A stretch of 64,000 nt of DNA, taken from NCBI GenBank assembly GCA_034414775.1, contig DAOULX010000042.1:3590-67589 (forward strand). Reading direction: 5' to 3'. Positions 9,567 to 57,268 of the stretch are shown here, in pieces (positions within the stretch are counted from its first letter, which is position 1; each line of letters begins with the position of its first letter). Source of the DNA: Dehalococcoidales bacterium. Lineage in GTDB: Bacteria > Chloroflexota > Dehalococcoidia > Dehalococcoidales > RBG-16-60-22. A model generated the notes under the pieces. That model had not been told where the DNA came from, made no database searches, and saw nothing but the letters and a program-made list of their open reading frames with translations. The position numbers were made by a program, and so were the translations under genes.

Positions 9567-10148
9567 CTAATGAAGGTCCACGTACTGGGTAACCCGGCCG
9601 GGTATTTCTCTTTCTAAGGGGAGCACCGGGCCGTTGGGTGGCTTAACCTCCAGGGCAAACCTGTCATACGGGCCGATTGAGATATTGCCTGATGTCGGCA
9701 TGACAACGGTGATTTCGAAGAGCTCGTTGGGATCGAGAAGATTATCATCATTGACCGTGCTCAACTTTGCCAATGTCCAGTTGACCGAGGGAAGAAAGTT
9801 GCCCTGGTCATGGTAGGAAATAATGACAGGGCTTACATTCTCCGATGACGGAGCGAAATCTACCGGACTACCGGCCGAAGGAATCGCCACACCAAAGATG
9901 ATTTCCGTTACAACGCTGCTCTCCATCTTGGCGATGATGTTGCCCTTGATTTCTATCGTGGCCATGGTTGAATCGAGTCCGGCGTTGACGGCCTCTTTGG
10001 CCTTCTGTGAGGAGAACAGGCCTGCGGAGAGGACGACATAAGCGAACACCGAAGCCACAATGACGAACGCAATAAGTATTATTGCCGTTTCCAGGCCGGT
10101 GACACCCGCCTGGTTTTCGCGTATTTCCTTTACTCGTTTCCTAAACAT
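9567..10148 (-). CDS. Archaellin (archaeal flagellin) N-terminal domain protein with class III signal peptide
   Basis: A basic leader MFRKRVKEIRENQAG is followed by VTGLETAIILIAFVIVASVFAYVVLSAGLFSSQKAKEAVNAGL. This matches the archaellin N-terminal domain pattern, including the region after the hydrophobic helix. An RBS GGTGGAGG lies upstream. Confidence 0.75.
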   Translation of the reverse strand: MFRKRVKEIRENQAGVTGLETAIILIAFVIVASVFAYVVLSAGLFSSQKAKEAVNAGLDSTMATIEIKGNIIAKMESSVVTEIIFGVAIPSAGSPVDFAPSSENVSPVIISYHDQGNFLPSVNWTLAKLSTVNDDNLLDPNELFEITVVMPTSGNISIGPYDRFALEVKPPNGPVLPLEREIPGRVTQYVDLH

Positions 10149-22895: not shown

Positions 22896-25800
22896 TTGAA
22901 TATGACAAACCCGGAGGTTGACAAAGATATGGCGTTAACCGGCAAGGTAATAATCGATACAGGGGAAATCGATGCGGTGATTCTTGATATGGATGGTGTC
23001 ATCACCCAGACCGCTGACATCCATGCCGCTGCCTGGAAAGAGCTTTTCGACGAGTACCTGAAAACCCGGGCGGACCGTTCCGGGGAGAAGTACCGGCCGT
23101 TCGAAATCGATCCCGATTATTTCCAGTACGTTGACGGGAAACCCCGTGATGACGGCGTGAAAAGCTTCCTGGAATCCCGCGGCATGTCTATCCCGCTGGG
23201 GGGAAAAGCTGATTCTGAAGACCAGGAGACTGTCCGGGGGTTGGGTAGCCGAAAAAACCGGTATTTTCTCGAGCAACTGAGGCAGGAGGGAGCCACTGCT
23301 TTCCAGTCTTCGGTGGATTTTGTAAAAGAGCTCAAAGCTCTCGGCATTTACGTGGCGGTAATATCGGCCAGCCGGAACGCCGAGGAGGTATTACGGTCTG
23401 CCGGGGTACTCGACCTGTTTGACGTCAAGGTTGACGGCGTTGACGCCGGTGAACTCAGGTTAAAGGGTAAGCCCAATCCGGCTATATTCCTGGAGGCCGC
23501 CAGGCGGCTGAATGTCCGGCCGGACCGGGCGGCCGTGGTCGAAGATGCCATAGCCGGTGTCCAGGCTGGCCGAAGGGGTAACTTCAAGCTTGTCATTGGA
23601 GTCGACCGTACCGGGCAGGAGGAAAACCTCCGGGAAAATGGCGCCGATGTAGTCGTGGCGGACCTGTCCTGGCTTGGTATCAAACAACCGACCCGCCCGA
23701 AGTCATTCGGCCGCCCGCTGAACAGCCTTCCATCTGCCCTGGAACGGAGAGAAGAAATTTTCGCCCGGCTGAGTGAAAAGAGTCCCGCAATTTTCCTTGA
23801 CTTCGATGGTACGCTGGCACCAAGAGTTAAAGCCCCGGCCGAGGTGGTTCTTTCCGGGAAGACCCGGCAGGTCATCAAACACTTGGGCAGACACTATTCG
23901 GTTGCCGTTGTCAGCGGACGTGATCTGGATGACATTCGTAAACTGGTCGATATCAATGACATCGCCTACGCGGGTGGTCATGGAATAGACATTTCCGGCC
24001 CGGGTAACGCCTTCCGGAGAGAGGAACGCGGTAAAGAGTTCCTGCCGGCACTCACCCGCGCCGAGAAAGAATTACGCGGGGCACTCAAACGTATCAAGGG
24101 GATAAAGATTGAACGTAAACACTTCAGCGTTTCCGTTGATTATTGCCGGGTCAATGAGGCTGACCTGGGTACATTCAAGGAGAGGCTTGACGGGGTGGCC
24201 TCAAATAATCCAAGGTTGAAAAAGACCGCCGGTGAAATGTTGTTTGAGCTGACGCCCAAAATCGATTGGAACAAGGGCAAGGCTGTCTTAGCCCTGATGG
24301 ACGTATTATATGCGGACAGCAGTAAGATTACGCCTCTTTATATTGGCGAGGATACCGCCGATGAAAAGGCTTTCCGCGCCATGGGGGAACGGGGTATCGG
24401 CATCGCCGTTGGTAAGGGGCGCCGCCGGACCCTGGCGCATTACCGGCTGCACGATCCGGATGAGGTCAGGGAGTTTCTGGCAGGACTGGGGGCGCTGGCG
24501 GAAAAGAAGGTCTCTCGAGGCATCTGGTCGCTTGTTTTCGATGGTTTCGTTCCCGAGGAAGAAGGGTTGAGAGAGGCCCTGTGCACGCTGGGTAACGGCT
24601 ATTTCGCCACCCGTGGCGCTGCTCCCGAGTCTAAGGCAGACGCGGTTCACTATCCAGGCACCTATGTCGCGGGATGCTTTAACCGGCTGACCAGCAAGAT
24701 AGCTGGCAAGAAAATCGAGAATGAAAGCATGGTGAACCTCCCGAACTGGCTGCCGCTGTCGCTGCGTTTCAACGACGGCGCCTGGTTCGATGTTGAGAAG
24801 GTCCAGGTGCTGGAATACGAGCAGGAGCTCGACCTGAGACGGGGCGTCCTGAACCGGCGGATACGCTTTGCCGATGAGCAAGGCCGCCGGACACGCCTGC
24901 TGCAACGCCGTTTTGTCAGCATGGCCGATCCTCATCTGGCAGGGATAGAGACCACCATCGTCGCGGAAAACTGGTCGGGGCAGTTATCGGTCAGATCGGC
25001 GCTTGACGGGACGGTAACCAACGACGGCGTGGCCCGCTACCGGCAACTGGATTGTCAGCATCTAGTACCGCTGGAATGCTCCCGCATCAATAACGAGACG
25101 ATATTACTGCAAGTGGAGACATATCATTCGCACATCCGGATTGCCGAAGCGGCACGAACGAGATTGTTCCTTGACGCCACCCAGCTCACTCTGGAACCCG
25201 CGACTATAGAAGACAAGGGCTTTATCGCCCAGGAGTTCAGCATCCCTGTAAAGACGGGGGGGCAGATAAGCGTTGAAAAGATAATATCTTTATATACGTC
25301 TCGGGATTCGGCTATTTCGGAGAGTGGTGAAGCCGCCCGGGAATCCGTGGCACGTGCCCCGGGCTTTGAGGGGCTTCTGGAACGCCACGTGATGAGCTGG
25401 GCTAACCTCTGGAACCGGAGCCGTATCGCCATCGAAAACGGCGAGCGTGTGGCCATGATCCTGCACCTGCATATCTTTCACTTATTGCAGACGGTTTCGC
25501 CCAATAGCATCGGTCTTGACGTGGGTGTACCGCCGAGGGGCCTCCACGGCGAGGCTTATCGCGGCCATATCTTCTGGGATGAGCTGTTTATATTTCCATT
25601 TTTAAACCTGAGCATTCCGGATATCACCCGCTCGCTGCTGTTGTACCGTTACCGGCGCCTGCCGGAAGCACGCTGGGCGGCCGCCCGGGCCGGGTTCCGG
25701 GGGGCGTTGTACCCGTGGCAGAGCGGCAGCGACGGACGGGAGGAGAGCCAGACACTCCATCTGAATCCCCGCTCGGGGCGATGGCTACCCGACAACTCAC

Positions 25801-26942
25801 ACCTGCAAAGGCATATCAATATCGCTATCGCCTATAATATCTGGCTTTACTACCAGGTGACCGGCGATGTCGATTTTCTCTCTTACTATGGAGTGGAGAT
25901 GCTCGTCGAAATCGGGCGGTTCTTCGCCAGCATCGCCACATACAATCGCACGCTGGACCGTTACGAGATCCGCCGGGTCATGGGTCCTGACGAATACCAC
26001 GATTCTTATCCGAACGCCAGCGAACCCGGCATCGACAATAACGCCTATACCAATGTAATGACGGTCTGGCTGCTCTGCCGGATCCTGGAAGCACTTGATA
26101 TAATCCCCCCGGATAGGAAGGAGTCACTCCAGGATAAACTGGATCTTAGACGCCAGGAGCTGGAGCATTGGGATGACATCAGCCGTAAAATGCGGATCGT
26201 CTTCCATGACGGCGGTATCATAAGCCAGTTTGAGGGCTATGATGCTCTTGAGGAGTTCGATTGGAAAGGCTACGAAAAGAAGTACGGTAAAATCGAGCGC
26301 CTCGACCGTATCCTCGAGGCGGAAGACGATACTCCCAACCGGTACAAAGTCTCTAAGCAGGCCGATGTGCTAATGTTGTTTTACCTGCTTTCATCCGATG
26401 AACTGCGGGAGCTGTTCGGCCGGCTTAACTATCCCTTTGAATATGAGACCATTCCCAGGAACATCGATTATTACCTTCATCGTACTTCCCATGGCTCTAC
26501 TTTGAGCCGATTGGTGCATGCCTGGGTACTGGCCCGCTCCAAACGTGAACTTTCCTGGCACCTTTTCAAGGAGGCCCTGGAGAGCGATGTTTCCGATATT
26601 CAGGGCGGTACGACGATGGAGGGTATTCATCTCGGTGCCATGGCGGGGACGGTAGACCTGGTGCAGCGCTGTTTCACCGGGATCGAAACCCGCCGGGACA
26701 AGCTGCAGTTAAACCCGGTGCTACCAAACGAGCTCAAAGACATCCAGTTCGATATTGTGTTCCGTCGGCAGCATCTCAACCTTCAATTTACCCATAACCG
26801 GCTGATTATCAAGGGACAGCCGGGTGAAGTGTCACCGGTCAGGATTGGCTTCGGAAACCTGGAAACCGATCTCAAACCTGGTGAGACCATGGAATTCAAG
26901 CTTCCGGATCCCTTGGCGAACCCTGATGATCTTACCAGGTAG
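22896..26942 (+). CDS. Tri-domain fusion: beta-phosphoglucomutase-like HAD + trehalose-phosphatase-like HAD + GH65 glycoside phosphorylase
   Basis: Domain 1 has DAVILDMDGVIT...KGKPNP...VEDAIAGVQAG. Domain 2 has AIFLDFDGTLAP...VSGRD...GEDTADE. The C-terminal roughly 780 aa have a GH65 pattern (HIFWDELFIFPF, GPDEYH, QADVLML). The architecture is that of mycobacterial OtsB1-like proteins. Confidence 0.85.
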   Translation: MNMTNPEVDKDMALTGKVIIDTGEIDAVILDMDGVITQTADIHAAAWKELFDEYLKTRADRSGEKYRPFEIDPDYFQYVDGKPRDDGVKSFLESRGMSIPLGGKADSEDQETVRGLGSRKNRYFLEQLRQEGATAFQSSVDFVKELKALGIYVAVISASRNAEEVLRSAGVLDLFDVKVDGVDAGELRLKGKPNPAIFLEAARRLNVRPDRAAVVEDAIAGVQAGRRGNFKLVIGVDRTGQEENLRENGADVVVADLSWLGIKQPTRPKSFGRPLNSLPSALERREEIFARLSEKSPAIFLDFDGTLAPRVKAPAEVVLSGKTRQVIKHLGRHYSVAVVSGRDLDDIRKLVDINDIAYAGGHGIDISGPGNAFRREERGKEFLPALTRAEKELRGALKRIKGIKIERKHFSVSVDYCRVNEADLGTFKERLDGVASNNPRLKKTAGEMLFELTPKIDWNKGKAVLALMDVLYADSSKITPLYIGEDTADEKAFRAMGERGIGIAVGKGRRRTLAHYRLHDPDEVREFLAGLGALAEKKVSRGIWSLVFDGFVPEEEGLREALCTLGNGYFATRGAAPESKADAVHYPGTYVAGCFNRLTSKIAGKKIENESMVNLPNWLPLSLRFNDGAWFDVEKVQVLEYEQELDLRRGVLNRRIRFADEQGRRTRLLQRRFVSMADPHLAGIETTIVAENWSGQLSVRSALDGTVTNDGVARYRQLDCQHLVPLECSRINNETILLQVETYHSHIRIAEAARTRLFLDATQLTLEPATIEDKGFIAQEFSIPVKTGGQISVEKIISLYTSRDSAISESGEAARESVARAPGFEGLLERHVMSWANLWNRSRIAIENGERVAMILHLHIFHLLQTVSPNSIGLDVGVPPRGLHGEAYRGHIFWDELFIFPFLNLSIPDITRSLLLYRYRRLPEARWAAARAGFRGALYPWQSGSDGREESQTLHLNPRSGRWLPDNSHLQRHINIAIAYNIWLYYQVTGDVDFLSYYGVEMLVEIGRFFASIATYNRTLDRYEIRRVMGPDEYHDSYPNASEPGIDNNAYTNVMTVWLLCRILEALDIIPPDRKESLQDKLDLRRQELEHWDDISRKMRIVFHDGGIISQFEGYDALEEFDWKGYEKKYGKIERLDRILEAEDDTPNRYKVSKQADVLMLFYLLSSDELRELFGRLNYPFEYETIPRNIDYYLHRTSHGSTLSRLVHAWVLARSKRELSWHLFKEALESDVSDIQGGTTMEGIHLGAMAGTVDLVQRCFTGIETRRDKLQLNPVLPNELKDIQFDIVFRRQHLNLQFTHNRLIIKGQPGEVSPVRIGFGNLETDLKPGETMEFKLPDPLANPDDLTR

Positions 26943-49410: not shown

Positions 49411-49893
49411 TCATGGTTCTAGAAGCTCCAACGCCTTGTTGACCGCATCTTGTGGGCTGGCCGCCACGATAATGTTATCGTATTTTCGACCTTCAATAGC
49501 TATCTCCCAGGTGTTCAGGCCGATAACGGGGATCCCGCTCTGGAGAGCATGGCCGATCTCCGAGAGAGTGCCGTAGCTGCCATCGACGGCGATGACAACC
49601 TGACATGATTTAACTACGGCAACGTTTCGGGCATAACCTATGCCGGTGACGATGGGAATTCGGACATAGGGATTGGCCGCCAGGCGATTCTCCCCGGGGA
49701 GGATGCCGATCGTAAGACCACCTTCGGCGGCGGCTCCCCGGCAGGCGGCCTCCATAACACCCCCCAATCCCCCGCATACCAGGACCGCGCCCCGCCGGGC
49801 AATCTCGCGGCCGACCTCTTCCGCCAGGTCGGCTATCCGGGGAGGCACTTCGCTACCACCGATCACGCCGATAAAAACAGGTCTATCTTTCAA
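49411..49893 (-). CDS. TIGR00725 / LOG-like Rossmann-fold protein
   Basis: 160 aa with GVIGGS...VCGGLGGVMEAACRGA...GIGYARN, the pattern of the TIGR00725 family. Confidence 0.75.
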   Translation of the reverse strand: MKDRPVFIGVIGGSEVPPRIADLAEEVGREIARRGAVLVCGGLGGVMEAACRGAAAEGGLTIGILPGENRLAANPYVRIPIVTGIGYARNVAVVKSCQVVIAVDGSYGTLSEIGHALQSGIPVIGLNTWEIAIEGRKYDNIIVAASPQDAVNKALELLEP

Positions 49894-49946: not shown

Positions 49947-49987
49947 CAAAAGGGGAGGGCTGCGGGAAGTGTACCACCGCAGCCCTC
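49947..49987 (-). terminator. Candidate terminator downstream of ftsZ
   Basis: An 11-bp stem GAGGGCTGCGG / CCGCAGCCCTC is followed on the minus strand by CCCCTTTTG. Confidence 0.45.
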
Positions 49988-50073: not shown

Positions 50074-51201
50074 TTAAGTGAAGTGACGTTGCTTGGCCGA
50101 CTCGCTCGGTGTTTCACTGGATGCCACGTGCCGTCGGTGACTGAAAAGGGGACGGCGCAGGAAGGAAGGCATATCCAGCTCGTCCTCTGTCTTCATGCCT
50201 TTCAGGATCTTGGTGAGCTCGTCATCCTCGGTCTCCTGGCCCATGCCCAGCTTGGCATGGAATCCGGTGGTGATGAGGGTAATCCTCACTTCGTTTTCCA
50301 TGGACGGGTCATTGGCGACGCCGAAGATGATGTTGGCATCCGGATCGACAGCCTGTTTGATGACATCGGCCGCCTGGTTGACCTCGAACAGAGAGAGATT
50401 GCTGCCGCCGACGACGTTAAACAGGACAGCCTTGGATCCTTCGATGGACACATCGAGGAGCGGACTGGCCAAGGCTTCCTTGGCAGCATCGGTGGCCCGG
50501 TTCTGTCCGGATCCCTTACCGATTGACATCCAGGCCGGGCCGGCATCCTTCATGATGGCCTTGACATCGGCGAAGTCGAGGTTGATCATACCGGGGGTGG
50601 TAATCACCTCGGCGATGGCCTGGACGCCGTGTCGCAGGACATCATCGGCGAGCTTAAAGGCGCTGTCGACACCGGTCTTGTGGTCACAGAGAGTCAGCAG
50701 GCGGTCGTTGGGGATGATAATCAGGGTATCGACCTTATCGATCAGGGTAGTGATGCCTTCTTCAGCCGTCTCCATGCGGTGAGCACCCTCGAAAGTGAAG
50801 GGTTTGGTAACTACGGCGATGGTCAGGGCACCGCTGTGCTTGGAAATCTCCGCTAATATCGGGATAGCACCGGTACCGGTACCGCCGCCCATACCCGCTG
50901 TGATAAACACCATGTCCGCACCGGAGAGGATCTCCTTCAGCTCATCGCGGTTTTCCTCGGCGGCCTTTTGCCCGATGCGATGGTCGCCGCCGGCGCCGAG
51001 TCCCTTGGTCAGCTTGGGGCCAAGCTGGACGCAAACCGGGGCTTCACAGATCGCCATAGCCTGGGCGTCCGTGTTCATGGCGATGAATTCTACCCCCTGG
51101 ATGTTTTCCCTGACCATACGTGTTACGGCATTGCTGCCACCACCACCCAGACCGACGACTTTTATCCTGGCTGGGTTGGTTACAAAACTTGTTCTAGCCA
51201 T
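50074..51201 (-). CDS. ftsZ: Cell division protein FtsZ (canonical)
   Basis: 375 aa with [18 protein letters not shown] and NLDFADV motifs and a C-terminal peptide LDMPSFLRR. Confidence 0.97.
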
Positions 51202-51245
51202 CTCCTCCTCCTTTCACTGATACCTTTTTATTTATTATTCTGTTT

Positions 51246-52448
51246 TCATACGAAGAACTTTTTAAGCTGGGCCGCGATGCGGTTGAATAGCCCCGGTTTC
51301 CAGTTCCTCCTACTCTGGTATTTGCTCCCCCAGAGCAGCAGACCGACACTGGTGGCGTAGGCCGGGTCACGGAGTGTGTCGGCGATACCATGGAGGTTAG
51401 CAGGGGCGCCAACCCTCACCGGGAGCTTGAGGATATCGCGCCCGAGGGCAGCCATGCCGGATAGATTGGCACTGCCACCGGTAAGCACCAGACCGGCGGG
51501 TACCAGTGCTTCGTAGTCCGAATTCGGCATTTCCAGGAGGATGAGCTTCAAGATTTCCTCGACCCTGGCCCGGATGATGTCGCAGAGGTCCTGATAGGAT
51601 ACGCCGTGGCCGTCTTTGGATATAGCCGGAGCCGTATCACTTTTGCTTTCATAAACAGGCATAACACTGCCGTACTTTTTCTTCATCTCTTCGGCAATCT
51701 CGAACGGCAGCCCCAGGCCGATAGCGACATCGCGGGTGAGCTGGTATCCGGCTACCGGTAGAATGGAGGTATGCCAGATGCTGCCTTCCCTGAAGACAGC
51801 AACGTCCGTGGTGCCACCACCGACATCAGCCATGATGACACCGACCTGCTTTTCGTCATCGGTGAGGATGGCCTCGCTGCTGGCCAGGGGCTCCAGGACA
51901 AGGTCTTCGATGTCTATCCCGATGCTCCGGATGCATTTGACCAGGTTCTGGATCGAGGTCACCGCCGCTGTGATAATATGGGTTTCCACGTCGAGTCGGA
52001 AGCCGTGCATGCCGACGGGATTTTTAACGCCCGTCTGACCGTCGACGGCATAGGCGCGGGGGATAACGTGAAGCAGTCTTCTATCAGTGGCGGTCTTCAC
52101 GCTCTGGGCGGAGGCCAGGACCCGTTTCAAGTCGTCCGGGCGTACGACGCGGTCGTTACGAGTGATAGCGACAACGCCGTGGTTGTTGATCGACGTAACG
52201 TGGCGGCCGGTAACGCCGACGTAGGCAGATTCCACTTTATAATTGCTGGCCTGCTCCGCCTTTTTAACCGAGTCCCTGATGGATTCCCTCGCTTCGTTGA
52301 TATTGACCACGAGCCCTTTGTGCAGCCCCCGGGAAGGAGAAACGCCCACGCCCAGGATGCGAGGGCCGCCGTCACTGACATCCGAAAGTATCGTACAAAT
52401 CTTGGTCGTGCCAACATCAACTGAAGCTACGACATTCTGTTTTTTCAT
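51246..52448 (-). CDS. ftsA: Cell division protein FtsA
   Basis: 400 aa with actin-fold motifs (VDVGTTK, DVGGGTTD). It lies immediately upstream of ftsZ and has a strong RBS, AAGGAGGG. Confidence 0.95.
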   Translation of the reverse strand: MKKQNVVASVDVGTTKICTILSDVSDGGPRILGVGVSPSRGLHKGLVVNINEARESIRDSVKKAEQASNYKVESAYVGVTGRHVTSINNHGVVAITRNDRVVRPDDLKRVLASAQSVKTATDRRLLHVIPRAYAVDGQTGVKNPVGMHGFRLDVETHIITAAVTSIQNLVKCIRSIGIDIEDLVLEPLASSEAILTDDEKQVGVIMADVGGGTTDVAVFREGSIWHTSILPVAGYQLTRDVAIGLGLPFEIAEEMKKKYGSVMPVYESKSDTAPAISKDGHGVSYQDLCDIIRARVEEILKLILLEMPNSDYEALVPAGLVLTGGSANLSGMAALGRDILKLPVRVGAPANLHGIADTLRDPAYATSVGLLLWGSKYQSRRNWKPGLFNRIAAQLKKFFV

Positions 52449-52536
52449 CTGCCCTCCTTAAATATCCGTGGTCTTTCGTACCATATTTCTTTCGGTTCTC
52501 ACATACAAGAACCTCCTTTATTGGTTTGCTTATGGT

Positions 52537-53589
52537 TCAAGCGGCCAATAATACCGTCTTGATCTTTTGTAACAGGGCTGGCCGACGCCATCCCCGATAC
52601 TCGGCGATGGTGAGGACCGGATGGTCTCGGGCGGCGTCGGGCGAAGAGTTGTTATTGATCACACGCTGCGCGGCCCTCATTTTGGCGCTGCGGCTGCGCA
52701 CGTTGAGCCCGATTTCGGCTCGGGTGGGGGTAATGACTTTCTTGTTGACCAGTTCCAGGCGTGGGGTATGGCCGCAGATACAGGCCGGCGTCCCCGGGGG
52801 GCAAATACAACCGCGGGACTCTGTCTGCATGAACTGCTTGACGATTCTGTCTTCGAGAGAGTGGTAGCTGATGACTACCAGCCGGCCAGCGTGGCCGAGG
52901 AGATCAACGGCCTGTCTCAGAGCGGCTTCCAGGTGTTCCAGTTCGTGGTTGACGGCGATGCGGAGCGCCTGGAAGGTTTTCGTGGCCGGGTGAATACGGC
53001 CGCTCCGTCCGATGGCCGTTTCAACCAGTGATGCCAGCTGGCGAGTTGTGGAAACGGGACGATTCTCCACGATAATCCGGGCAATTCTGCGACTGCGCTT
53101 TTCCTCGCCGTAGGTCTTGATGATATGGGCCAGCCGGGCTTCCGGTGTCGTGTTGACGATATCGGCGGCGGTGGTCTTTTGGGTGGGATTAAATCTCATG
53201 TCCAACGGGGCATCGGTCTGGAAGCTGAAACCGCGCCGGCTTCCGTTGAGCTGAAGGGAGGACAGTCCCAGATCGAAAAGGATGCCGTGTACGGGGAAAA
53301 AGTCATATTTAATACAAATGGATTGCAGATTGGCGAAATTATCATTGACCAGGAGGGCGGACTCCTTATAGCGCTGGAGTCTTTTCTTCGCCGCCTCGAT
53401 AGCGGCGGGGTCGGCGTCAATACCCAGAAGCTGACCCCCCGGAGAGCTGTGGTCGAGGATAGCCGCGGCGTGCCCGCCGGCACCGACGGTGCAATCGATA
53501 TAGCGGCCGCCAGGCTGTACAGCGAGGGCGCGAAGCGCCTCAGAGAGGAGGACCGGGGTGTGGGTGTGGGTTGATCTCTGGTTCACCAT
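52537..53589 (-). CDS. rsmH: 16S rRNA (cytosine1402-N4)-methyltransferase RsmH
   Basis: [15 protein letters not shown] and FDLGLSS motifs are present. The protein is about 40 aa longer at the C-terminus than typical RsmH. Confidence 0.92.
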
Positions 53590-53592
53590 TAA

Positions 53593-54018
53593 TTATTTGT
53601 TCTCCAGGCTTTCGATAATCTGCCAGGCCTGTTCCTGGCTGTCCATCTTCTCTTCTTCCCAGACTTCCTTGTTCCAAATCTCAAGGTAAGTGTTAGCTCC
53701 GGCGATAACCACGTCGTCGACGATTTCGGCGTGTTCGCGGAGAGGAGCGGGAATGGCGATGCGTCCTTGATTATCGACACGGGTACTGAAAGCGGTGGCG
53801 AAGATGGCGCGGCTCAATTTTCTCATTTTGCTGCGGGTCAGGCCGCTGCCGGTGAGTTGTTCGGCGATCTTCTTCCATTCAACCGGGGTATAGCAGGTGA
53901 TGCACTTTTCCTGACCGGGCGTCAGAACGATACCGTCTTTCAGGGCGTTCCTGAAGCGCGGCGGGACGGGTACCCGGCCCTTGTCATCTACCTTATAATC
54001 GAACTCACCGTAAAACAT
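53593..54018 (-). CDS. mraZ: Transcriptional regulator MraZ
   Basis: MFYGEFDYKVDDKGRVPVP plus a second DxxGR motif (VDNQGRIAIP). Confidence 0.92.
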   Translation of the reverse strand: MFYGEFDYKVDDKGRVPVPPRFRNALKDGIVLTPGQEKCITCYTPVEWKKIAEQLTGSGLTRSKMRKLSRAIFATAFSTRVDNQGRIAIPAPLREHAEIVDDVVIAGANTYLEIWNKEVWEEEKMDSQEQAWQIIESLENK

Positions 54019-54033
54019 CGTCTTCCTGGAATC

Positions 54034-54099
54034 TTACCACTATTTACCACTATTTACCATATTTCACCATTTTATAACACAGACTCCCACATTTGTCAA
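54034..54099 (-). promoter_or_regulatory. mraZ promoter with four 10-bp-phased TGGT direct repeats (candidate MraZ operator)
   Basis: The minus strand reads TTGACA-N17-TATAAA, immediately followed by ATGGTGAAAT ATGGTAAATA GTGGTAAATA GTGGTAAGAT. On the plus strand, ACCA occurs at 54036, 54046, 54056 and 54066. Confidence 0.5.
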
Positions 54100-54328: not shown

Positions 54329-55057
54329 ATGAAAGCCGTGGGCGGCATTACCGTTATAATATTGTATTCACTGGCATCCGGCGCGACGGTTCTTCTCGGG
54401 GGATTGATTGCCAGGATCAACCCGTTCCCGAAGAATGAAACCGGTCAGGAAATTACCCACGGCATCGTCGCATTCGGGGGTGGCATACTCGTGGCCGCCG
54501 TGGCCTTTGTCTTGGCGCCGAGAGGGATACGTTTTCTCTCGCTGCCCATCATTATTCCCGTCTTCTTCGGCGGTGTTGTGTTATTCTTACTTGTTGACCG
54601 TTTCATTTCGCTGCGTGGTGACCGGGCGGGGCAACTTATCTCCATGTTAATGGATTTTGTCCCCGAAGCGATCGCTCTCGGGGCGGTTTTTTCGAGTGAT
54701 CCAAGGACCGGATTGCTGCTGGCCTTGTTCATCGGGATGCAGAACCTCCCCGAGGCATATAACTCATTCGGAGACCTGGTCAACAGCGGCTTTTCCCCTA
54801 ACCGGTCCTGGCTCATACTGGTCCCTTTCAGCCTGGTGGGAGTGGTGGCTGCCGTAGCCGGTTATTTGTTTCTAACTGGGCATGAAGAGATAATTGCGGC
54901 CCTCATGTTATTTTCGGCGGGGGCCATACTTTACCTGGTATTTCAGGATATCGCGCCAATGGCTAAACTCCGGAACCACTGGATGCCCGCCACAGGCGCG
55001 ACCCTGGGATTTATGATGGGTATGATAGGTGAGAAATTGCTGGGAAGCCTGGTATAA
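54329..55057 (+). CDS. ZIP-family divalent metal transporter
   Basis: 242 aa polytopic membrane protein with a ZIP signature region (LALFIGMQNLPEAYNSF). Confidence 0.8.
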   Translation: MKAVGGITVIILYSLASGATVLLGGLIARINPFPKNETGQEITHGIVAFGGGILVAAVAFVLAPRGIRFLSLPIIIPVFFGGVVLFLLVDRFISLRGDRAGQLISMLMDFVPEAIALGAVFSSDPRTGLLLALFIGMQNLPEAYNSFGDLVNSGFSPNRSWLILVPFSLVGVVAAVAGYLFLTGHEEIIAALMLFSAGAILYLVFQDIAPMAKLRNHWMPATGATLGFMMGMIGEKLLGSLV

Positions 55058-56398: not shown

Positions 56399-57268
56399 AT
56401 GGACGTTGCATCGCTGGTTGAACTCAAGGAGAACCCTAAAATCCCGGATATCGCTCCCGGGGATACCGTCAAGGTCAGCGCCAGGATTGTGGAGGCCGGT
56501 AAGGAGCGTATCCAGGTCTTCCAGGGCGTTGTACTCAAGATAAGGCGCGGCGGCGCCGGTGCCAGTTTTACGGTACGGCACGTCGCCTATGGCATAGGAG
56601 TGGAGAGGACATTCCCGCTTTACTCGCCGCTGGTCGAAAAAGTAGAGATCGTGCGTCAGGGTAAAGTACGGCGGGCCCGGCTTTATTACCTGCGCGGCCT
56701 TAGCGGCAAAGAAGCACGTCGCAAGATCAAGCGCGTTGAGAGGAAAGTGAAGCAGGTCGGCGAGGAGCTTTTAGAACCGGTTCAGGAAGAGGTCATGGAG
56801 CCTGAGGTTGCTGAGCTGGCTGAAGAAGTGGCACCCGTAGAAGGGGTGGAAGCAGTAGAAGCCCAGGTTGCCGAAGAGAAACCGACCGAAGCTCCGGCTA
56901 TGGAGGCAGAGCCAGTAGTGGAGGAGCTTGAGGTTGCCGAAGCCCCACCTGCTGAAGAGCCAGCCGAACCGGTAGCCGAGGAGAAACCGGCCGAAGCACC
57001 GGCCATGGAAGCGGAGCCAGTGGTGGAGGCGCCAGAGGTTGCCGAAGAGCCAGTTGAGCCGGTAGCCGAGGAGAAACCGGCCGAAGCACCAGCCATGGAA
57101 GCGGAACCAGCGGTGGAGACACCAGAAGTTGCCGAAGCCTTGCCTGCCGAAGAAACAGTTGAACCGGTAACCGAGGAGAAACCGGCCGAAGCGCCGTCCA
57201 TGGAAACAGAACCAACTGAAGTTCCTCCTGATGAAGAACCTCCCGCTGAGGAGAAAGAGACCGGCTAA
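56399..57268 (+). CDS. rplS: 50S ribosomal protein L19 with a roughly 170-aa acidic Pro/Glu/Ala tandem-repeat C-terminal extension
   Basis: Residues 1 to about 120 are a normal L19 ([11 protein letters not shown]...[16 protein letters not shown]...[10 protein letters not shown]...RRARLYYLR). Repeated [17 protein letters not shown]...PEVAE units follow, up to residue 289. Confidence 0.9.
56873..57240 (+). repeat. In-frame tandem DNA repeats (105/90/105 nt plus a partial unit) inside the rplS 3' region
   Basis: Units begin with GA(A/G)GAGAAACCG(A/G)CCGAAGC at 56873, 56978, 57068 and 57173. Confidence 0.8.

Follow-up and report, generated by a model that had tools for sequence, protein, structure and literature searches.

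A reduced mraZ-rsmH-ftsA-ftsZ division operon in a Dehalococcoidales bacterium

In a 64-kb stretch of DNA from a Dehalococcoidales bacterium (analysed as a whole and referred to here as the window), the open reading frames and family models define a division cluster of four genes, mraZ-rsmH-ftsA-ftsZ, arranged head-to-tail on the minus strand. We consider it highly probable (roughly 0.85) that this is the reduced division operon of the Dehalococcoidales, from which the wall genes were lost in an ancestor, and that this reading explains the locus overall. The main finding is already known: a 2023 paper (PMC10608941) described the arrangement, its likeness to the Mollicutes operon and its tie to the loss of peptidoglycan in an ancestor. 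Our main result is a further genome that follows this pattern, of confirmatory and taxonomic value. Three further details look new: a promoter with four MraZ boxes, a start-stop mini-ORF upstream of ftsA, and a C-terminal tail of RsmH that elsewhere forms a separate small gene.

Results

All four proteins exceeded the curated cut-offs of their TIGR families (Table 1). MraZ scored 111.8 bits against TIGR00242 (cut-off 98.35; PF02381, 4.8e-30), RsmH 350 bits against TIGR00006 (cut-off 154.3; PF01795, 1.3e-109), FtsA 382 bits against TIGR01174 (cut-off 175.85) and FtsZ 412 bits against TIGR00065 (cut-off 295.2); RsmH is also 43% identical to its E. coli counterpart over residues 6–309. Intergenic gaps measure 3 bp between mraZ and rsmH, 88 bp between rsmH and ftsA (52449-52536) and 44 bp between ftsA and ftsZ, so that the reading frames and family matches bear out the gene coordinates and the 88-bp gap given in an earlier, sequence-only reading of this DNA. 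FtsA closes in a basic and hydrophobic C-terminal end, NWKPGLFNRIAAQLKKFFV, that is kept in relatives, and FtsZ carries a conserved C-terminal peptide of 12 residues followed by a tail of ~24 residues closing in KQRHF.

Table 1 Features of the division operon and its flanks, in window coordinates.
Feature	Position	Strand	Remarks
-35 hexamer TTGACA, mraZ operon promoter	54094-54099	-	Invariant in 68/68 related upstream regions
Fifth box, GTGGG	54086-54090	-	Inside promoter spacer
Extended -10, TGTTATAAA	54071-54079	-	17 nt past -35
Putative MraZ operator	54036-54070	-	Four RTGGT direct repeats, each exactly 10 bp from the next, starting right downstream of -10
RTGGT boxes ATGGT, ATGGT, GTGGT, GTGGT	54066-70, 54056-60, 54046-50, 54036-40	-	
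mraZ	53593-54018	-	141-aa transcriptional regulator built of two MraZ/AbrB-type halves
rsmH (mraW)	52537-53589	-	16S rRNA m4C1402 methyltransferase, 350 aa
RsmH tail (residues 310-350)	52540-52662	-	41 residues, lineage-specific
Mini-ORF	52499-52519	-	Conserved start-stop: SD AAAGGAGG (52512-52519), 7 nt, ATG-TGA (52499-52504)
ftsA ribosome-binding site, AAGGAGGGCAG	52449-52459	-	Near-invariant among relatives
ftsA	51246-52448	-	400 aa, actin-like membrane tether for FtsZ
ftsZ	50074-51201	-	375 aa, tubulin-like division GTPase
Likely operon terminator	49957-49985	-	GC-rich hairpin GGGCUGCGG...CCGCAGCCC then UCCCCUUUU; predicted fold energy -25.4 kcal/mol

An identical FtsA was found in NCBI MAG GCA_964393175.1, and the best 80 genome matches to FtsA, at 74–87% identity, all come from MAGs named as Dehalococcoidales, Dehalococcoidia or Chloroflexota, the same taxon names that the RsmH matches bear. 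On these sequence matches, the organism is placed as a Dehalococcoidales bacterium (class Dehalococcoidia, phylum Chloroflexota), an affiliation with the Dehalococcoidia that the sequence-only reading had guessed. The order mraZ-rsmH-ftsA-ftsZ is contiguous in the best 80 loci wherever the contig extends far enough (71 complete, 9 interrupted by a contig end). Two marks of the reduced dcw cluster, four genes adjacent on one strand and membership of the Dehalococcoidales, are found here. As the sequence is metagenome-derived, the rsmH-ftsA junction could be an assembly or binning artefact in which unlinked pieces were joined and wall genes dropped. We regard this as vanishingly improbable, since the junction recurs in the best 80 independent MAG contigs, which come from many studies and include long-read contigs of 0.3–2 Mb, the rsmH-ftsA spacer is itself conserved, and an independent NCBI contig has an identical gene order over the stretch that it has in common with the window.

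In E. coli, the dcw cluster runs mraZ-rsmH-ftsL-ftsI-murE-murF-mraY-murD-ftsW-murG-murC-ddlB-ftsQ-ftsA-ftsZ. The window resembles this canonical cluster in the end pairs mraZ-rsmH and ftsA-ftsZ, which have the same orientation, and in the MraZ-type operator upstream, but all 11 intervening genes are absent, with the short spacer in their place. Using E. coli K-12 FtsL, FtsI, MurE, MurF, MraY, MurD, FtsW, MurG, MurC, DdlB, FtsQ and LpxC as phmmer queries against all six-frame ORFs of the 64-kb window, we obtained no match at E<=1e-3, whereas the search did pick up each of the four positive controls (MraZ, RsmH, FtsA and FtsZ). For FtsL and FtsQ the miss is weaker evidence: sequence conservation is low in both, and the E. 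coli queries would overlook a divergent copy. Pfam annotation of essentially every plausible window gene returned non-wall functions only. Together, the controlled search and this annotation uphold the earlier observation that nothing resembling ftsL, ftsI, mur, mraY, ftsW, ddl or ftsQ lies within the 64 kb. Around the related loci, 1.18 Mb searched by phmmer with the E. coli queries, controls again being recovered, likewise contained no dcw-type wall gene.

These observations agree with what has been described for the lineage. According to PMC10608941, the four genes lie side by side in D. mccartyi, in every member of the Dehalococcoidales examined and in SAR202; HMM surveys place the loss of the wall genes in the common ancestor of Dehalococcoidales and SAR202, before their divergence; and the cells have an S-layer-like envelope, on which nothing in the 64-kb window bears. 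Peptidoglycan pathways are missing in related genomes (PMC3971608, PMC11994032), and these three papers support the statement in the sequence-only reading that Dehalococcoidia have been reported to lack a peptidoglycan wall. From this lineage-level literature, we infer that the organism with this particular genome is wall-less. The arrangement could also belong to a walled organism whose dcw cluster was split, with mur, mraY, ftsW and pbp genes elsewhere in the genome: the DNA examined comprises 64 kb of this genome and the dcw neighbourhoods of relatives, and the basal Dehalococcoidia orders Tepidiformales and UBA6077 retain dcw genes (PMC10608941). The nearest relatives, however, are Dehalococcoidales rather than these basal walled orders, and both the inferred loss before the Dehalococcoidales/SAR202 split (PMC10608941) and the 1.18 Mb of related contigs free of wall genes make a split cluster very improbable.

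A partial or cryptic peptidoglycan pathway, such as one that builds a short-lived septal ring as in Chlamydia, could likewise be encoded by genes scattered outside the window. Chlamydia and Planctomycetes were once thought to be wall-less and were later shown to make peptidoglycan, a precedent that counts in favour of such a pathway. Those lineages, however, keep mur, mraY and pbp genes, which are reported missing in Dehalococcoidales and SAR202 (PMC10608941, PMC11994032), and D. mccartyi showed no peptidoglycan layer, so we hold a cryptic pathway to be very improbable and retain ancestral loss of the wall genes as the explanation.

Owing to its strict rules, a consensus scanner called neither the conserved promoter nor the terminator-like hairpin, and conservation was used instead. 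The -10 element was overlooked because the scanner demands a T at hexamer position 6, and the hairpin lacks a clean U-run. Spacing between the -35 and -10 elements is 17 nt in 52/68 relatives, and the TGG cores of the boxes are in register across 68 relatives. In the 64 kb, the pattern RTGGK-N5-RTGGK-N5-RTGGK occurs once, with 0.01 occurrences expected by chance. Published MraZ boxes are GTG(G/T) with 6-nt spacers (PMC12957436), which the window boxes fit: four boxes in register at a 10-bp period lie upstream of mraZ, besides the one in the promoter spacer. Judging from this sequence pattern, MraZ probably binds the RTGGK boxes and represses its own operon.

Within the rsmH-ftsA spacer, a Shine-Dalgarno sequence followed by a start codon and an immediate stop, the sequence hallmarks of a Start-Stop site, is present in 69/80 sequences, compared with 1.4% by chance, and the mini-ORF start lies 48–59 nt upstream of the ftsA start. 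A local hairpin, GGTTCT/AGAACC (52494-52513), surrounds the mini-ORF ATG. RNAalifold predicted no consensus RNA structure for the spacer; a hand-named 7-bp stem, weak in the window itself, has modest support among the sequences (69% of cells paired; 23 double-change cells vs 12.3 in shuffles). Rfam detected no known RNA family in the operon, and three tRNAs only in the window. E. coli Start-Stop sites (Meydan et al., bioRxiv 10.1101/520783) also consist of an SD-like sequence, a start codon and an immediate stop, with a proposed role in adjusting how a neighbouring gene is translated. They occur inside genes and out of frame, whereas the putative site in the window is intergenic, upstream of ftsA and order-wide.

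The Pfam model, the TIGR model and the alignment to E. coli RsmH all stop at residue 309 of 350, leaving 41 extra residues in RsmH, close to the extension of about 40 residues first noticed in the sequence. This tail is kept across the lineage and consists of a variable linker of ~22 residues and a conserved end motif closing in +xxFLAA; the last 16 codons of rsmH are under coding constraint. At 15 related loci, in a subclade, the tail homologue is a free-standing ORF of 63–75 aa between rsmH and ftsA. An exhaustive profile search with the tail gave only 23 clusters, which are representatives and do not gauge taxonomic reach; each was either a C-terminal fragment of RsmH or a free small ORF, with no new domain context that might point to a function. 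AlphaFold2 modelling of RsmH from a 54-sequence alignment gave a mean pLDDT of 66, and ~30 over the tail, so that the model is uninformative on the tail. We also considered an amphipathic membrane helix like the ends of FtsA and MinD, and rejected it on a hydrophobic moment of 0.01–0.07, compared with 0.27–0.57 in known membrane-targeting helices.

Discussion

In the scheme that we propose, the genes for peptidoglycan synthesis and the septal wall, ftsL through ftsQ, which usually occupy the interval from rsmH to ftsA, would have disappeared in an ancestor of this lineage, and the remainder would form one compact transcription unit. A strong sigma-70-type promoter would drive mraZ-rsmH-ftsA-ftsZ, a hairpin past ftsZ would end transcription, and the autorepression by MraZ would act through four or five boxes, 10 bp apart, right after the -10 element. 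FtsZ would build the division ring and FtsA would anchor it to the membrane through the conserved C-terminal peptide of FtsZ, and, as in Mollicutes, the cell would constrict with no septal peptidoglycan being made. Ahead of ftsA, the start-stop mini-ORF, to judge by its sequence features, probably holds a ribosome, and would thereby tune ftsA translation or shield the ftsA-ftsZ mRNA.

At the level of the description in PMC10608941, the locus does not differ from the reduced dcw cluster of D. mccartyi, Dehalococcoidales and SAR202: the four genes and their sequence along the DNA agree, the taxonomic order is shared, and the wall genes are missing between rsmH and ftsA. The accessible text of that paper makes no mention of the promoter with its boxes, of the start-stop mini-ORF, or of the RsmH tail and its small-ORF counterpart. 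The Mollicutes operon mraZ-mraW-ftsA-ftsZ (e.g. Mycoplasma genitalium; PMC8475190, PMC12957436) has the same genes and order in bacteria without peptidoglycan, and shares four GTG(G/T)-type MraZ boxes with a 10-bp period beside the promoter. This likeness is convergent, because Chloroflexota and Mycoplasmatota are unrelated phyla. FtsA here is canonical by its TIGR01174 score, whereas the M. genitalium gene is a putative ftsA homologue only, and RsmH differs from that of Mollicutes in bearing the lineage-specific tail.

The three additional details are modest, and the functions that we infer for them, that of the RsmH tail included, are put forward as suggestions. The spacer and the tail might be lineage-specific control devices of wall-less division, with the mini-ORF either fixing the ratio of FtsA to FtsZ or lending stability to the ftsA-ftsZ mRNA, and with the RsmH motif, found also as a free small protein in the usual place of ftsL, representing a small, new module associated with division; we advance this tentatively and hold it to be rather doubtful. 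The mini-ORF, the MraZ operator and the RsmH tail or small gene could nevertheless serve as experimental handles on the regulation of FtsZ and FtsA where there is no septal wall.

Downstream of ftsZ, relatives carry RsmD-like, CoaD-like, CvpA-like and ABC transporter genes on a reading of their sequences, none of them division-specific and none in common with the window. A tie between wall-less division and CetZ-like genes would be speculation; CetZ-like proteins of Dehalococcoidia are already in print (PMC9871819), and two such genes are present in the window.

A conserved four-gene division operon

Four consecutive open reading frames (ORFs) on the minus strand (50074–54018) were found to encode MraZ, RsmH, FtsA and FtsZ, with scores far over the curated cut-offs of the Pfam and NCBIfam equivalog models and with intergenic gaps of 3 bp (mraZ–rsmH), 88 bp (rsmH–ftsA) and 44 bp (ftsA–ftsZ). 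These ORF positions confirm the four-gene cluster described in the sequence-only reading, including its gene coordinates and the 88-bp gap. FtsZ retains the GGGTGTG loop and C-terminal peptide, FtsA retains its basic and hydrophobic C-terminal end, and both proteins look functional from their sequences. The C-terminal binding peptide of FtsZ is not terminal (50074–50160, minus strand); about 24 more residues follow, ending in KQRHF, an end conserved in most relatives.

Features of the division operon (window positions)
Feature	Position	Strand	Description
-35 TTGACA	54094–54099	-	read upstream of mraZ
extended -10 TGTTATAAA	54071–54079	-	17-nt spacer after TTGACA
boxes ATGGT, ATGGT, GTGGT, GTGGT	54036–54070	-	exact 10-bp steps, directly after -10
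mraZ	53593–54018	-	ORF, 141 aa; MraZ TIGR00242, 111.8 bits
rsmH	52537–53589	-	ORF, 350 aa; RsmH TIGR00006, 350 bits
Shine-Dalgarno AAAGGAGG	52512–52519	-	within 88-bp spacer
ATG TGA mini-ORF	52499–52504	-	7 nt after AAAGGAGG
ftsA ribosome-binding site AAGGAGGGCAG	52449–52459	-	after mini-ORF
ftsA	51246–52448	-	ORF, 400 aa; FtsA TIGR01174, 382 bits
ftsZ	50074–51201	-	ORF, 375 aa; FtsZ TIGR00065, 412 bits
GC-rich hairpin then UCCCCUUUU	49957–49985	-	after ftsZ; -25.4 kcal/mol

The exact FtsA sequence was also present on a contig of the NCBI metagenome-assembled genome (MAG) GCA_964393175.1, where the neighbouring genes are identical. When FtsA was scanned against one genome per species (GTDB) and the best 80 loci were taken, every one belonged to a MAG labelled Dehalococcoidales, Dehalococcoidia or Chloroflexota, with 74–87% FtsA identity, and the source names of RsmH homologues agreed with those of the FtsA matches, therefore confirming the Dehalococcoidia placement guessed from the sequence. 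Gene order was kept on one strand in 80/80 loci, with all four genes visible in 71; nine of the 80 end at a contig edge within the operon. Since the same order recurs across 80 related loci, an assembly artefact is ruled out as the source of the four-gene arrangement.

Upstream of mraZ the operon is bordered by a ZIP-family transporter gene (54329–55057, plus strand), and downstream of ftsZ by a SLOG/TIGR00725 gene (49411–49893, minus strand). Both are also present in the identical NCBI copy of the region and in 0/79 other related loci by tblastn, and are therefore local insertions.

Absence of wall genes

[quoted passage not shown] The search picked up the positive controls MraZ, RsmH, FtsA and FtsZ (E-values 3e-15 to 1.7e-95) and gave no match in the window at E<=1e-3 for FtsL, FtsI, MurE, MurF, MraY, MurD, FtsW, MurG, MurC, DdlB, FtsQ or LpxC. 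FtsL and FtsQ are poorly conserved in sequence, so that their misses count for less. When practically every plausible gene of the 64 kb was annotated with Pfam, only functions unrelated to the wall came up, including ATP synthase, aminoacyl-tRNA synthetases, RecO/RecR/DnaX, GAPDH, enolase, PriA, TrmD, L19 and S16. The claim that the window holds no peptidoglycan genes thus stood up to both approaches; dcw-type wall genes were likewise missing, by phmmer, from 1.18 Mb of related loci.

A reduced operon in a wall-less lineage is already known, both the finding and its interpretation having been published (PMC10608941, PMC3971608, PMC11994032). Wiegand et al. 2023 (PMC10608941) describe an HMM search of Dehalococcoidia genomes for MurA-G, MraY, MreBCD, PBP2 and Fts proteins, adjacency of the four division genes in D. 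mccartyi, in all Dehalococcoidales examined there and in SAR202, a gene order identical to that of the wall-less Mollicutes, retention of dcw genes in the basal orders Tepidiformales and UBA6077, and wall-gene loss in an ancestor shared by Dehalococcoidales and SAR202. For related genomes, missing peptidoglycan pathways and S-layer-type envelopes were reported by Hug et al. 2013 (PMC3971608) and by a SAR202 study of 2025 (PMC11994032); the window itself contains nothing that speaks to an S-layer. Wall-lessness of the organism studied here is supported at the lineage level, with the 64-kb window scanned in this work.

Putative regulatory signals of the operon

The operator layout, a start-stop mini-ORF, and an RsmH tail with a related small ORF appear undescribed; these are modest additions with putative roles. 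The mraZ promoter spacer holds a further box, GTGGG, besides the four that follow the -10 element. The three-box pattern is unique in the window, with 0.01 matches expected by chance, and across 68 related upstream regions the TTGACA -35 is invariant and TGG cores stay in register at 31–33, 41–43, 51–53 and 61–63 from it. Published MraZ boxes are of the GTG(G/T) type with 6-nt spacers, a format that the window boxes match, and number three in most bacteria and four in some mycoplasmas (PMC12957436); the window has four in register. On the strength of promoter, boxes and terminal hairpin, we therefore read the region as one putatively MraZ-autoregulated operon, MraZ binding and transcript ends being predicted from these signals.

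A strong Shine-Dalgarno (SD) sequence, a short spacer and a start codon with an immediate stop were found in 69 of 80 rsmH–ftsA spacers (the window, 52449–52536 on the minus strand, plus 79 related loci), whereas random 70-mers matched for composition show it by chance at a rate of 1.4%. Its start codon lies 48–59 nt upstream of the ftsA start, and several spacers without it have an ORF of 2–4 codons in its place. SD-to-ATG spacing varies while SD, start and stop are all kept, which favours a translation logic over a fixed RNA motif; RNAalifold gave no consensus structure for the spacer, Rfam no family match, and a hand-named 7-bp stem had modest covariation support. E. coli "Start-Stop" sites, to which we liken this mini-ORF, bind ribosomes and slightly damp their host gene (bioRxiv 10.1101/520783). 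We infer that the mini-ORF may park a ribosome ahead of ftsA, which would tune ftsA translation or protect the ftsA-ftsZ message.

An RsmH tail and a related small ORF

The E. coli RsmH alignment covers only residues 6–309 of the window protein. Residue 309 is likewise where the Pfam and TIGR models stop, which leaves a tail of 41 residues, in agreement with the extension of about 40 aa noted earlier. Retained in nearly all relatives, this tail consists of a variable stretch of ~22 residues and an end motif closing in (K/R)xxFLAA. Over the last 16 rsmH codons, differences of 0.36, 0.22 and 0.53 at codon positions 1, 2 and 3 show protein-level constraint, with little on the linker. The tail is not amphipathic, and AlphaFold gave no confident model of it.

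In 17 related loci the rsmH–ftsA gap is 318–387 bp, and 15 of these (L048, L050, L054-L056, L058-L060, L063, L065-L067, L070, L079 and L080) contain an ORF of 63–75 aa ending in ETKVGAWRRxxLLxKLxxxFS, with the start-stop element still present after it. Metagenome gene callers also predict this ORF, which has no Pfam domain; JGI labels one member 'ubiquitin', which looks spurious. An HMM of the small ORF matched RsmH residues 303–349 with up to 48 bits, the homology covering the last ~47 residues, and gave no match to reversed sequences or E. coli RsmH. The small gene therefore appears to be a partial copy of the 3' end of rsmH that has been retained as coding sequence; it occupies the place of ftsL in the canonical dcw cluster. 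When 1.84 billion representative proteins were searched exhaustively with a profile of the tail, the module turned up in just 23 clusters, every one of them either a C-terminal piece of RsmH or a free-standing small protein.

Other genes in the window

Two tubulin-family paralogues with a CetZ-type C-terminal domain (PF00091 + PF21011; 38794–39969 and 43416–44591, minus strand) have ORFs of 818 and 162 aa without Pfam match between them; CetZ-like proteins in Dehalococcoidia have been mentioned (PMC9871819). An archaeal flagellin match (PF01917, 3.3e-24) lies in a bacterial gene (9567–10148, minus strand), and archaeal-type flagellar genes are reported from SAR202 (PMC11994032). Ribosomal protein L19 (residues 12–109) continues in frame into a Glu/Pro/Ala-rich repetitive C-terminal extension of ~175 residues (56399–57268, plus strand); in the NCBI copy only an 81-aa gene is called there, sharing the strand of the neighbouring priA and trmD. 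Finally, a 1348-aa fusion protein (22896–26942, plus strand) carries a HAD hydrolase and a trehalose-phosphatase together with a complete phosphorylase of glycoside hydrolase family 65.
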